A stretch of DNA of 64,000 nt from a virus. A model generated the notes under the pieces. It was given only the letters and a program-made list of their open reading frames with translations. It was not told the DNA's origin and did not search any database. Below, piece by piece: positions 21 to 3,257 of the stretch. The position numbers were made by a program, and so were the translations under genes. How positions within the stretch are numbered: the stretch's first letter is position 1; each line of letters opens with the position of its first letter. Location: positions 1-64,000 of the IMG/VR virus record IMGVR_UViG_3300046463_000548. One strand, given 5' to 3'.

Positions 21-491
21 ATGGAACTCAATGCAGGCTCCCGGCTGATCGAAGCCGCAACAGAGAAGCGACTTATTGGCGAGTACGTGACGAAGAACGG
101 GGAACCGGCAATCACGATCTATCAGGAAATCAATGATAAGGGTCGTGTTCAGTATCGCCCCGACATCATGCACGACAAGTTCAGTTGCCCGCCGTTTCAT
201 GACCGTTCCGACTATCGCGAAGTCTATACGAAGGTTACTGAGGAACTGAAGCGCAAGCGCGGCTGGAAGGCAGTCAAGCCGCTGCCCGAACACGAGCCGT
301 CAACGCACGTGGAGCCCACACGCTACGAATTCCACGTAGAGTTTCTGGACGAGAATGGGCGTTCGGGCAAGCTCGATCACGAGGTGAAGGCCCGTAATCG
401 TTTTGATGCCTTCACCGAATTGCTTCAGGGACTGAAACGCAGCGGTGGTATGGACGTGGTGCACCGCATCACCTGCACCGAGCACAAATAG
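21..491 (+). CDS. Hypothetical protein with N-terminal NAxxRL leader (MELNAGSRLIEA)
   Basis: ORF with RBS-like AAGG; shares leader motif with the nine following ORFs. Confidence 0.8.
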   Translation: MELNAGSRLIEAATEKRLIGEYVTKNGEPAITIYQEINDKGRVQYRPDIMHDKFSCPPFHDRSDYREVYTKVTEELKRKRGWKAVKPLPEHEPSTHVEPTRYEFHVEFLDENGRSGKLDHEVKARNRFDAFTELLQGLKRSGGMDVVHRITCTEHK

Positions 492-499
492 AGGAAATC

Positions 500-811
500 A
501 TGAGCATCAAGATCAATGCTGCTGCGCGTCTGCTCGGTGCTTGGGATTTGTTCGAAGAGGTCAAACGCAAGAAGGCCGCGCGTGAATCACTAGCCGACAA
601 GCTGGTAAAGGAGTACGGCACGCACGGCTCTGTGGCGTTCAATCACCCTAGTGGACGTACGGCACTCGCCGGTCCTGATGCGTCGAAGCATGGTGGGTAC
701 CGTATCACCTGGTTCGATCATAGTGGACACCCAATCGGCCACGGCGAAAGACCAAACCTGCGTGAGGCTATCCTTGAGGCACTCAAGGAAGGATTCACAC
801 CCCAACATTAA
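500..811 (+). CDS. Hypothetical protein with NAxxRL leader (MSIKINAAARLLGA)
   Basis: AGAGG RBS; tight packing; leader motif. Confidence 0.8.
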   Translation: MSIKINAAARLLGAWDLFEEVKRKKAARESLADKLVKEYGTHGSVAFNHPSGRTALAGPDASKHGGYRITWFDHSGHPIGHGERPNLREAILEALKEGFTPQH

Positions 812-821
812 AGGAATTGTC

Positions 822-1142
822 ATGAACACGAAAATCAACGCAGCACAACGACTCACCGCCGCAGAGGATCACGTCGAAGCAATCAAGCAACTGGTCACCG
901 GCTACTTCGGTCCCAAGCACGTCGCAGGCGTTGAAGCAACCCACGGAACCGTGGTCACGGTGTATCTGAAAATGGGTGTGACCGTGAACGATCTGCAATG
1001 GCTTCTCCGGGAGTGCGGTGCACATACAGCCGGTGGAGTCGAAGTCCGACCGTCGCAACATTCAGGCACGGTTGCGATACTGGTGGATGCCGCGCACTAT
1101 CAGGCACCGAAGCACAACACGGGCCGCGAAGACCATCCTTAA
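822..1142 (+). CDS. Hypothetical protein with NAxxRL leader (MNTKINAAQRLTAA)
   Basis: Start re-called at ATG 822 (AAGGA RBS) within track ORF 651..1142. Confidence 0.8.
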   Translation: MNTKINAAQRLTAAEDHVEAIKQLVTGYFGPKHVAGVEATHGTVVTVYLKMGVTVNDLQWLLRECGAHTAGGVEVRPSQHSGTVAILVDAAHYQAPKHNTGREDHP

Positions 1143-1155
1143 TTCGGGGCTAGCC

Positions 1156-1440
1156 ATGGAACTTAATGCGAGCACGCGATTGTACGCGGCAAACCTCACA
1201 GAGAAGGCAGCGGAATTCCGCGCACTGTTGAAACAGAAGGGTCTCAAGGTGCGGACCCGCGTCGCACCGGGTGGCGGTCAGGTGCAGGTGATCGCGCCGT
1301 CCTACGCAGAGCCGTTCACCGACGAGCAGAAGCTGACCATCAACCAGTTGGCCGTAGACCTCGGATATGTTGGTGTTAGGGGCACTCCTATCAACGTGCA
1401 CGGTGGCGATTCCCATCAACTCAATTTCTATCCGGGCTGA
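1156..1440 (+). CDS. Hypothetical protein with NAxxRL leader (MELNASTRLYAA)
   Basis: Start re-called at ATG 1156 within track ORF 1018..1440. Confidence 0.8.
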   Translation: MELNASTRLYAANLTEKAAEFRALLKQKGLKVRTRVAPGGGQVQVIAPSYAEPFTDEQKLTINQLAVDLGYVGVRGTPINVHGGDSHQLNFYPG

Positions 1441-1448
1441 GTAACCAC

Positions 1449-1910
1449 ATGTCACCACTCGAAAACGTAAAGCGCCTGTATCTCGATTATCTCAATGCAG
1501 GGTTCAAGAAGGACGTGATCGCGCGAAAGCTGAAAAGTCAGTTTCCGGGTGCGAAGTTCACGTTCAAGGGTGCAACGCTGTACGTTGCATTTGGCCTCAA
1601 TCCGGAGCAGAAGGTGTTAGGTATGGAACTCAACGCAGCGCAGCGCTTGCAAGTCACAGCCTCCGACTACCATAAGCTGAAAGAACTCGCGAAAAAGTTC
1701 GAGCAGCAATTGAAGAAGGAGGGCGCTCCGGGCGTAGAAGTGACGTTCATCAGCGATGATGAAATCAACATCTTCAGCGAAGACAAGCACGCATTTGACA
1801 AGGCGAAGCAAGTCCTCAAGAAGGTGCCGGGTCTAACCTTCAGCAAGGAAGACGTGGACAACGATCCGGACTTTGACGGCCCGCAATATCACGCCTGGTA
1901 CAAGTTCTGA
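1449..1910 (+). CDS. Hypothetical protein with internal MELNAAQRL motif (codon at 1623)
   Basis: ORF 153 aa; motif at residue 59, preceded by AAGGTGTTAGGT (possible second start). Confidence 0.75.
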   Translation: MSPLENVKRLYLDYLNAGFKKDVIARKLKSQFPGAKFTFKGATLYVAFGLNPEQKVLGMELNAAQRLQVTASDYHKLKELAKKFEQQLKKEGAPGVEVTFISDDEINIFSEDKHAFDKAKQVLKKVPGLTFSKEDVDNDPDFDGPQYHAWYKF

Positions 1911-1914
1911 TCAC

Positions 1915-1942
1915 TTGCACAATACGTCAATAGGAGTAAAAT
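1915..1942 (+). promoter_or_regulatory. Sigma70-like promoter TTGCAC-N16-TAAAAT containing inverted TTGACG-N3-TGTGC box (1917-1930)
   Basis: GCACAATACGTCAA = reverse complement of TTGACGTATTGTGC. Confidence 0.65.
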
Positions 1943-1978
1943 ACTTCTGTTGACGGATAATTCATTGCGGAGAAGAAA

Positions 1979-2263
1979 ATGGAACTAAACGCAGCGCAAC
2001 GTCTGGTTGCTTCCGATGAAGGTGTTGCAGACCGCGCTTACACAGAAAAGAAGATCATGGACGGCACGTACAAGATCGTTGAGGGCAGGGGCCAGCGGTG
2101 GATGGCCGCACAAGTGCCGAATGGTCGTTTCGTCGTGCTCGACATGGAACGTGAAGGAAGCAATCTCTTGGCCACGGGTCTGGATCGCGATGCTGCAGTG
2201 AGTGCCGTCAAGATCGCAAACAAGACCGGCCAGTGGCACCCGACCCTGACGATGAAGCGTTGA
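1979..2263 (+). CDS. Hypothetical protein with NAxxRL leader (MELNAAQRLVAS)
   Basis: GGAG RBS; leader motif. Confidence 0.8.
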   Translation: MELNAAQRLVASDEGVADRAYTEKKIMDGTYKIVEGRGQRWMAAQVPNGRFVVLDMEREGSNLLATGLDRDAAVSAVKIANKTGQWHPTLTMKR

Positions 2264-2273
2264 GGTAAAGGAT

Positions 2274-2465
2274 ATGGAACTCAACGCAGCCACACGACTG
2301 CTTGCACTGAGCTATGACGGCAACATCGGAATGATGGAGATGGTCAAGTTCTATAAGGTGGCGACACCGGAGCAGAAGAGCCTGATGCAATCCTTCCTCA
2401 GTAGCAAACAGTTTGCCAAGGGTTGGGAACTGCTCCAGGACGTGACCGGTGTCAAACTCAAATAA
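2274..2465 (+). CDS. Small helical protein with NAxxRL leader (MELNAATRLLAL)
   Basis: GAGG/AAGGA RBS; leader motif. Confidence 0.8.
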   Translation: MELNAATRLLALSYDGNIGMMEMVKFYKVATPEQKSLMQSFLSSKQFAKGWELLQDVTGVKLK

Positions 2466-2486
2466 CCTCAAACACTGTACCAATCT

Positions 2487-2762
2487 ATGACGACACTTAA
2501 CGCATCATCTCGACTGACTGCGGGTGCCCCTCACGACCGGCACCTGGAGAAGATCGTCAACGCGATCAACCACAGCGGCATCAAGGCCGCACACATCAAT
2601 TCGGAGGGTCAGGAAGTCGTGGTGAGTACCATGAAACCCTTCAACGTTCACATGCTTGGGAAGTTCGCTGAGCAAATGCACGTCGATCCGCAGCACATCA
2701 GCATTGAACTCGGTCACGGTGTCATCGAACTCCGTATTCCTGAGTTCGTAATCGGCAAGTAG
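2487..2762 (+). CDS. Hypothetical protein with NAxxRL leader (MTTLNASSRLTAG)
   Basis: Leader motif; fits array spacing. Confidence 0.75.
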   Translation: MTTLNASSRLTAGAPHDRHLEKIVNAINHSGIKAAHINSEGQEVVVSTMKPFNVHMLGKFAEQMHVDPQHISIELGHGVIELRIPEFVIGK

Positions 2763-2770
2763 GTAGAAGA

Positions 2771-3022
2771 ATGACGGGACTCAACGCAGCCACCCGCCTC
2801 GTGGCATCCGAGCCACGACTGACGCGTCAGGAACTGTTTAAACGGGCCCGCGATAAGGGGTACAAGGTGACGGATAGGGGAACGCGTGTTTTCGTTACCC
2901 TGAACCGGTACACGTCGCTTGTGTTCTACGAAGACGGTTCGATCTTCTTCGCAGACATGGACCTATCGGCAGCAAAGAAAATCCCGCTGAAAGAAGCCTT
3001 TCGGATTTTGAAACTCCTGTGA
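2771..3022 (+). CDS. Hypothetical basic protein with NAxxRL leader (MTGLNAATRLVAS)
   Basis: AGGT RBS; leader motif. Confidence 0.8.
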   Translation: MTGLNAATRLVASEPRLTRQELFKRARDKGYKVTDRGTRVFVTLNRYTSLVFYEDGSIFFADMDLSAAKKIPLKEAFRILKLL

Positions 3023-3029
3023 GAAACCC

Positions 3030-3257
3030 ATGACTGAACTCAACGCAGCCACCCGCCTCGTGGCGACGGAAACCGAAAAGCCAGGTCATGGCGAAGTCGG
3101 CTCGCACGAGTATGAGAACTACGGCAAATACTTTCGTAGAGGTGATCTGGTAAAAGATAACTACGGCAAGTTACATACAGTGCGGGAGCATCGCGGCCCA
3201 CAAGTATTTTTTCAGGACGGGGGCTACGCCCACCCGTCGAAACTGCATCTAGCATGA
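3030..3257 (+). CDS. Hypothetical protein with NAxxRL leader (MTELNAATRLVAT); small beta-rich C-terminus
   Basis: Leader motif; last gene before terminator. Confidence 0.8.
   Translation: MTELNAATRLVATETEKPGHGEVGSHEYENYGKYFRRGDLVKDNYGKLHTVREHRGPQVFFQDGGYAHPSKLHLA

Follow-up and report, generated by a model that had tools for sequence, protein, structure and literature searches.

A peptide tag shared by ten genes at the left end of the window

The stretch of DNA analyzed here, called the window below, comprises positions 1 to 64,000 (64,000 nt) of the IMG/VR virus record IMGVR_UViG_3300046463_000548, whose whole contig (G000) has a length of 153.7 kb. Between positions 21 and 3257 of the window lie ten consecutive genes (T1–T10, Table 1) that carry the short peptide motif [L/I]NA[A/S/G]xRL, termed the tag in the following, on otherwise unrelated proteins, termed the cargo. 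An earlier note, made from the letters of the window alone, had listed these open reading frames (ORFs), and all ten were present at the starts it gave, all on the plus strand. Its placement of nine tags at the N-terminus and one inside the protein agreed with the ORF list and with direct reading. In the nine N-terminal cases the motif began 2-4 residues past the start codon. When the motif was back-translated to degenerate DNA (HTNAAYGC-N7-CGNYT), 11 matches were found in the window versus 0.62 ± 0.78 in 100 dinucleotide shuffles, and none of the 100 shuffles reached 11. In the whole of G000, the tag motif was confined to the ten ORFs of the array and the C-terminus of one further ORF, T11.

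Table 1. Tagged genes of the window and putative control elements of the array.
Feature	Position	Strand	Description
T1	21..491	+	156 aa, MELNAGSRL...; tag residues 1-11, then folded alpha/beta domain (predicted)
T2	500..811	+	103 aa, MSIKINAAARL...
T3	822..1142	+	106 aa, MNTKINAAQRL...; L186 ortholog at 10484-10801
T4	1156..1440	+	94 aa, MELNASTRL...; in G001 directly 3' of T1
T5	1449..1910	+	153 aa; 58-aa N-terminal module, internal tag (codons 1623-1655; motif 1623-1649), cargo
T6	1979..2263	+	94 aa, MELNAAQRL...; L186 ortholog at 12443-12688
T7	2274..2465	+	63 aa, MELNAATRL...; orthologs in L186, L187, L190
T8	2487..2762	+	91 aa, MTTLNASSRL...; orthologs in L187, L190
T9	2771..3022	+	83 aa, MTGLNAATRL...; L186 ortholog at 14332-14580, other array position
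T10	3030..3257	+	75 aa, MTELNAATRL...
T11	57314..57598	+	94 aa, tail-fiber cluster; tag-like N-terminus VEAANRLAA, full C-terminal tag ELNAAARLAAATPNI-stop
Promoter-like TTGCAC-N16-TAAAAT, weak	1915..1942	+	T5/T6 gap; not called by the consensus scan
Intrinsic-terminator-like hairpin	3259..3296	+	AAGCCCCG ... CGGGGCTT, then T-run; closes the array; read directly from the sequence; 12-nt loop, outside the limits of the hairpin scan

The peptide is conserved on unrelated proteins

The codons of the tag differed at almost every synonymous position, as the earlier note had claimed. Within the array the leucine of the motif was encoded by CTC, CTT, CTA, or TTG (with the isoleucine codon ATC also at that place) and the arginine by CGG, CGT, CGA, or CGC. 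Among 46 tags from four related contigs, arginine switched between CGN and AGR, and leucine between CTN and TTR. This free synonymous variation means that selection acts on the peptide. On the same grounds a purely DNA-level repeat was rejected.

Apart from a weak, tag-driven match between T9 and T10 (E 0.005), whose tag DNA is identical, tblastn gave no cross-matches, and T1 to T10 fell into ten different BLASTP clusters. The claim that the cargos do not resemble each other thus held, and a family of diverged paralogs was rejected because no other similarity was found past the tag. Pfam and PHROGs searches with the ten cargo proteins returned nothing above cut-off and no common family; T10 gave a weak match to DUF4222 that stayed below the cut-off (E 0.0034). 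DNA similarity of window positions 1-8000 to 50,697 phage records was limited to a single 130-bp match. By reading, the tag has neither a hydrophobic core nor a twin arginine, in keeping with the earlier statement that it is no Sec, Tat, or lipoprotein signal. Since no tmRNA or tRNA genes were found, a relation of the tag to tmRNA or tRNA was rejected.

We modeled T1 with AlphaFold2 (AF2). The mean predicted local distance difference test score (pLDDT) was 80, but residues 1-11 stayed below 50, and the first ten-residue block had a mean of 34 and no secondary structure. The tag is thus predicted to be disordered ahead of the cargo fold. A Foldseek search with this model against the PDB gave no match at E ≤ 0.001, and in the ESM Atlas T1 matched only viral clusters, with scores ≤ 0.77.

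The array is the distal end of a head-sheath-tube gene block

The window harbors genes for ParA/ParB, DnaB, SbcC, and tail fibers, and G000 encodes baseplate, tube, portal, terminase, and UvsX proteins beyond it. The portal proteins of Ralstonia phage phiRSL1 and Burkholderia phage BcepSauron share 67% and 64% identity, respectively, with the one encoded by G000. G000 is a phiRSL1/BcepSauron-like jumbo myovirus. It is incomplete, because the major capsid protein (MCP), the prohead protease, the sheath, and the small tube protein of phiRSL1/BcepSauron-type phages were missing from it. With its start only 20 nt ahead of T1 and these genes missing, the contig represents a part of a phage genome of roughly 220-250 kb. 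The ParA-like (PHROG 164, 1e-56) and ParB-like partition genes of this jumbo myovirus genome lie at window positions 13025-16828.

A pattern scan of viral contigs yielded one useful locus, the 53.7-kb IMG/VR contig IMGVR_UViG_3300046463_000310 (G001, which includes loci L033 and L034). Isolated matches, apparently due to chance, were all that metagenome contigs gave when scanned for ATGGARCTNAAYGC-N7-CGNYT, and no related locus was found with T6 as the query. G001 carries a T1 ortholog with 93% DNA identity, a T4 ortholog with 100% identity over 127 nt, and exactly the head and tail genes that are missing from G000. Its gene order is gp087, gp086, protease, gp084, gp083, MCP, three small genes, and sheath, followed by a tagged 149-aa and a tagged 98-aa protein, tube, a tagged 377-aa protein, a 248-aa protein, a tagged 109-aa protein, T1, and T4. 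T2 is absent between the T1 and T4 orthologs of G001 and of one further metagenome contig.

Six more metagenome contigs, found via T1 homologs, had the same layout. A payload-like order with tagged genes downstream of sheath and tube was seen in G001, L186, L187, L189-L192, and one further contig. From the gene order in G001 and its relatives we concluded that the array of the window is the variable distal end of the head-sheath-tube gene block. This gives indirect support to the earlier suggestion that the array extends to the left, as in relatives with a T1 ortholog further tagged genes precede it, and tube, sheath, and MCP lie beyond these.

The tag is a module that is exchanged between proteins

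T1 orthologs from nine clusters (61-95% identity) shared an invariant A5, R8, and L9, and the linker past the tag was rich in insertions and deletions. The T6 ortholog of L186, which lies directly 3' of a TTGACG-N17-TATAAT promoter, lacked precisely the 12 tag residues; it was the one ortholog without a tag that was found. The 58-aa module of T5 together with the tag was fused to cargo from three different families (G000/L190, L186, and L192; alignment A4). Two of these families also exist as plain tag-cargo genes (for instance L187 10998-11294). In L192 the T7 ortholog was fused behind the 58-aa module. The residue ahead of the internal tag of T5 was M, S, S, or T in four phages. Because the relatives have S or T, and not M, before ELNA, the T5 tag is truly internal by this comparison and T5 is a real three-part protein. 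The earlier view of a modular tag on interchangeable cargo is supported by these unrelated cargos, the tagless ortholog, and the module and tag on three cargos.

The relatives gain, lose, and reorder cassettes, and blocks of DNA homology between G000 and L186 stop inside tags (positions 522, 1178, and 1636). We read this as recombination that is favored at the tag or tolerated only there. The same breakpoints, the coming and going of cassettes, and the identical tag DNA of T9 and T10 would be expected if the stretch were a DNA or RNA element, such as a cassette-recombination site or a translation-initiation enhancer, or a leftover of gene duplication. However, nearly every synonymous site varies, including the switches between CGN and AGR and between CTN and TTR, while the residues are fixed. 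The motif is also kept in orthologs from phages with only 50-65% protease identity and at C-termini. The cargos have no residual similarity, and the recombination at the tags is better read as a by-product. The synonymous-site pattern thus largely refutes a DNA- or RNA-level or vestigial origin, to which we give only a very slight chance.

The tag and its variants occur throughout the clade

The scan of the replicon and related phages that the earlier note had proposed found the tag clade-wide. A profile search with the protease returned 57 IMG/VR loci, and most of them, down to about 50% protease identity, encode N-terminal tags. The consensus of 185 non-redundant tags was L/I, N (64%), A (94%), A (70%), x, R, L, hydrophobic/Lys, A (67%), A/S/T. 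Of 107 distinct matches to the strict motif, 94 (88%) had an ATG at most seven codons upstream, about 10 were internal, and 2 were C-terminal. The peptide is therefore mostly the leader that the earlier note had described but, given its conserved C-terminal and internal copies, not strictly one. The 166 tagged proteins formed 91 BLASTP clusters, 66 of them singletons, with a repertoire of about 10-25 tagged proteins per genome.

Tagged proteins were present in BcepSauron (gp075, gp077, gp090, gp091, gp093, gp099, gp253, gp276) and phiRSL1 (ORF109, ORF120, ORF141). Orthologous proteins kept the tag in phiRSL1, BcepSauron, and G001, and a NUDIX hydrolase was tagged in all three lineages. The C-terminal tag was kept within the gp090 and gp276 ortholog families. 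BcepSauron gp276 has a tag at both ends and its phiRSL1 counterpart one at the C-terminus. In gene order T11 takes the position of gp276, with matching neighbors gp277 and gp278; gp276 itself had no tblastn match in G000. In sub-clades without the canonical motif, variant tags stood at equivalent gene positions (L[QK]AKxRL in L222 and L226, NF[AST]xR[IL]L in L234 and L216), as expected of a peptide that co-evolves with a receptor.

Two copies of the tag, at both ends or N-terminal plus internal, were found in gp276, gp077, gp093, and T11. Paired copies would suit cross-linking, and the tag might accordingly be a short self-associating helix through which the tagged proteins gather in a joint body or condensate, so that no separate receptor would be needed. 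However, it spans only about ten residues, AF2 predicts no helix, and no heptad pattern is visible. We therefore regard self-association as very unlikely.

Tagged genes co-locate with morphogenesis genes

Gene positions were counted for 96 tagged genes in 27 loci with full flanks. Nearly all of the tagged genes (94 of 96) were on the strand of the head operon. In 21 cases the start was at most 1 kb beyond the protease gene, and a tagged gene was present within 1.5 kb in 15 of the 27 loci. A further 25 were located 7-10 kb downstream, around sheath and tube, and 36 stood near the connector gene, 7-11 kb upstream. In the complete genome G005 (218.9 kb, with terminal repeats), the pattern matched 19 times on the head-operon strand versus 0-3 times in the control, and the majority of the 19 matches surrounded the head module, at 3.7-38.8 kb.

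All relatives also have in the head block a large gene product (about 1520 aa) with the annotation DEAD-like helicase (L033 13416-17984 (-), BcepSauron gp088, phiRSL1 ORF129). Its neighbors on either side, the gp089 and gp090 families, have C-terminal tags, and it is a candidate for a virion-borne giant protein or hub.

Because tagged genes stand beside sheath and tube, loading into the tail or another partner is possible. The tag could direct cargo to the contractile tail, either inside it or on its surface (tube lumen, baseplate, or fibers), as the payload signals of extracellular contractile injection systems (eCIS), such as the Photorhabdus virulence cassettes (PVC) and the antifeeding prophage (Afp), do. 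Conserved tagged genes occupy the sheath-tube interval and the place directly after tube, the array of the window comes next, and T11 and gp276 belong to the tail-fiber cluster. On the other side, the strongest positional peak was found directly after the prohead protease and another one upstream of the head-tail connector, and eCIS signals are longer (about 20-70 aa). Furthermore, the tube lumen of a phage is normally occupied by the tape-measure protein. Tail loading is quite unlikely on this evidence.

Cargo domains include toxin-like proteins and metabolic enzymes

In G001 a tagged 517-aa protein (L034 7812-9365 (-)) matched Zeta_toxin (4e-20), and two small tagged proteins (L034 6600-7106 (-) and 6013-6612 (-)) contained an ATLF-like (anthrax-lethal-factor-type) metallopeptidase domain. 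The genes for the Zeta_toxin and ATLF-like proteins adjoin a tagged NUDIX gene, upstream of the connector gene. Tagged proteins of 70-73 aa matched the Pfam family RMF (ribosome modulation factor; L187 11830-12042, and more weakly L192 7332-7553), so that a tagged phage ribosome-hibernation factor acting as a host-shutoff effector is plausible.

G005 encodes a tagged homospermidine-synthase-like (saccharopine-dehydrogenase-like) enzyme with the Sacchrp_dh N and C domains (L253 14377-15792 (-)) and a tagged protein with a weak GNAT match. In phiRSL1 the neighbors of hss (ORF110) are the tagged NUDIX gene (ORF109) and genes for NAD salvage (pncB, cytidyltransferase/Nudix), so that a module for polyamines and NAD may also be marked by the tag. 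The earlier expectation of anti-defense or host-takeover cargo fits the toxin-like, host-directed domains; the NUDIX and homospermidine-synthase-like enzymes fit it less well.

A longer N-terminal module, in which the tag is followed by WWxxLxPExQxxYxKxHPxSKYA, was present in L033 629-958 (-), L033 1853-2986 (-), and L034 7812-9365 (-) and three times within BcepSauron gp075. The only database match of this module, to the HMG-box, was not significant (E 0.025).

The tagged metabolic enzymes (NUDIX, homospermidine-synthase-like, weak GNAT) would be accounted for if the tag docked to a partner that is not part of the virion, for example a chaperone, a protease adaptor that sets the time of degradation, or a phage hub that brings enzymes together in the infected cell. 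The predicted exposure and disorder of the tag and a possible sigma70-type promoter within the array would also suit such a partner. The core xRLLAT or RLL[AL]T resembles client peptides of Hsp70/DnaK, for which NRLLLTG is a model peptide. However, the phi-N-A-A half (phi, hydrophobic) does not occur in known DnaK or ClpX motifs, and a partner outside the virion leaves unexplained the orientation with the head/tail operon (94/96) and the accumulation of tagged genes after the protease and around sheath and tube. An N-degron of the ClpX N-motif type would need a free N-terminus; 88% of the tags are N-terminal, yet conserved C-terminal and internal copies exist. We consider a partner outside the virion unlikely, if worth keeping in mind.

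The modeled prohead protease is closest in fold to T4 gp21, and processing is possible for a subset of tagged proteins

The protease gene that we analyzed is located on G001 and not on G000. Its product belongs to PHROG 18299, "head maturation protease" (2.4e-86), and the family has no Pfam model. In its AF2 model (pLDDT 68), the best PDB match was T4 gp21 (5jbl_B, Z 7.4, 136 residues, root mean square deviation 4.1), and herpesvirus proteases came next with Z about 5. Searches against PDB sequences by phmmer and with a three-sequence profile returned nothing relevant. Foldseek alone gave non-significant results, and T4 gp21 was singled out only by VIA re-alignment. The modeled fold thus appears closest to T4 gp21, with a Z score that is middling yet clear of the rest. 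Directly after the protease gene of G005, and before the scaffold-like gene gp084, lies a gene without a tag (L252 14268-15896 (-)), whose 542-aa product has an SprT-like metalloprotease domain.

The earlier note had suggested cleavage after RLxA. This was not borne out, as no invariant residue follows the tag. A glutamate occurred 3-8 residues past RL in 52% of the tagged proteins versus 33-39% in control windows, and [ASGT]xE followed the tag in 33% versus 12-20%. The N-termini of the MCP from three of four phages compared kept ...[MV]VAA[ST]E just ahead of the conserved core, and the MCP of G005 has Q at the putative cleavage site. Clipping by a Glu-directed protease is possible for a subset of the tagged proteins, to judge from these residues, and does not define the tag. 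A cleavage site formed by the glutamate before LNAA was rejected, since this residue is lineage-specific and replaced by K or Q in other sub-clades.

The MCP N-terminus K-V-E-V-R-A-A-K-T-P-M-V-A-A-S-E (L033 7842-8927 (-), BcepSauron, phiRSL1) is faintly similar to the tag and its followers, K-I-Q-L-N-A-A-x-R-L-V-A-S-E. The earlier note had raised the question whether the MCP carries the tag; the score of this N-terminal likeness was under the threshold of the position-specific scoring matrix (PSSM), and we take it as a lead only.

A gene pair downstream of the array

At window positions 4803-5364, downstream of the array, a 95-aa gene starting MTLTVTAEFDAW... is followed by a gene of about 85 aa. 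The pair was kept in L186 and L187, where the second gene matched the Pfam family dnstrm_HI1420. Judged by these features, it looks like a toxin-antitoxin or addiction-module pair.

Discussion

We tentatively read the tag as a docking peptide by which cargo is loaded into the prohead, by analogy to the capsid-targeting sequence (CTS) of phage T4. We give this slightly less than an even chance, because the metabolic cargo and the tail-side location of some tagged genes would also suit other partners. The consensus phi-N-A-A-x-R-L-phi-A-[AST] would act as a short flexible peptide that is recognized by one assembly component of the phage; the inner face of the prohead and the scaffold or core are the likeliest candidates. 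A protein bearing it, usually N-terminally but at times C-terminally or between modules, would be recruited into the particle, in some cases perhaps clipped by the gp21-like protease, and would enter the next host together with the DNA. A larger set of tagged genes would extend through the head-sheath-tube block, with the ten genes of the window as its variable distal portion.

Several observations weigh against loading into the prohead. Tagged genes also flank sheath and tube and occur in the tail-fiber cluster, and homospermidine-synthase-like and NUDIX enzymes are odd cargo for a capsid. T6 to T10 may be under the control of their own sigma70-like promoter. The similarity of the protease to T4 gp21 is supported by a middling Z score, and processing is not general, as a nearby glutamate follows only about half of the tags and the MCP of G005 has Q instead. 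For phiRSL1, BcepSauron, and their relatives we found no virion proteome in the literature searched, nor was the motif described there for phiRSL1, BcepSauron, or Matilda.

A more far-reaching version of prohead loading, which we find fairly unlikely, is that phiRSL1-like jumbo phages use a co-evolving ten-residue loading code, at either terminus, to pack a large and rapidly exchanged arsenal into the capsid for co-injection. The code would have sub-clade variants (LNAAxRL, LQAKxRL, NFAxRLL), and the arsenal would include toxin-like kinases, metallopeptidases, a ribosome-hibernation factor, and NAD- and polyamine-related enzymes.

If particle loading is indeed what the tag does, the injected proteome of a whole environmental jumbo phage clade could be read from sequence alone. 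This clade comprises at least 228 protease relatives in metagenomes and includes Ralstonia and Burkholderia phages. Dozens of unstudied candidates for host takeover or anti-defense would follow, as would a ten-residue handle to package chosen proteins into a large capsid. The tag variants of the sub-clades are a natural experiment for finding the receptor by co-variation. Should the partner be outside the virion, the tag would still mark a large, previously undescribed set of co-regulated or co-localized proteins.

Comparison with known systems

Giant phages of the phiKZ/SPN3US type have many head-internal proteins that are cut by a gp21-like protease at x-x-E (PMC7411985, PMC5694885). Their propeptides are long and are not known to share a short motif, in contrast to the ten-residue consensus described here.

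Payloads of eCIS require an N-terminal packaging domain (PMC10097599; bioRxiv 10.1101/2023.11.13.566157). The payload signals of PVC Pdp1/Pnf and of Afp18 resemble the tag in that the payload genes lie downstream of the sheath/tube operon and the N-terminal signal is disordered. In eCIS a dedicated AAA+ ATPase helps to load the tube lumen. The payload signals differ from the tag in being longer and poorly conserved, and most of the tagged genes described here are located around the head genes of a true phage.

The internal proteins of T-even phages have only the CTS in common, which loads them onto the scaffolding core (PMC3012670). The CTS of IPI-III and Alt, like the tag, is an N-terminal peptide of about ten residues on unrelated, fast-evolving, exchangeable proteins, some with host- or defense-directed functions, in a phage with a gp21-like prohead protease and with the genes near the head genes. 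The comparison with this system, already drawn in the earlier note, is apt for the modular tag, the unrelated cargo, and the clustering of tagged genes around the head genes of a phage with such a protease; it does not extend to cleavage at RLxA. The two peptides would be analogs and not homologs, since MKTYQEFIAE shares nothing with phi-N-A-A-x-R-L-phi-A. In contrast to the CTS, the tag has no invariant protease site at its end and exists in conserved C-terminal and internal copies, its repertoire is far larger and includes metabolic enzymes, and packaging is inferred from sequence. While the principle is already known from T4, the motif, the clade, the use at both termini and between modules, the scale, and the sub-clade variants have not been described in the literature searched.

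Targeting peptides of encapsulins and microcompartments are short N- or C-terminal peptides on a flexible linker that dock unrelated enzymes inside a shell, and the encapsulin shell has the HK97 fold. They have in common with the tag the position at either terminus, the flexible linker, here rich in insertions and deletions, and the separation from the cargo fold. The motifs differ, and the shell would here be a DNA-filled phage head. If a loading code of this kind exists, its logic would be nearer to that of the encapsulin targeting peptides than to that of a protease-clipped leader.

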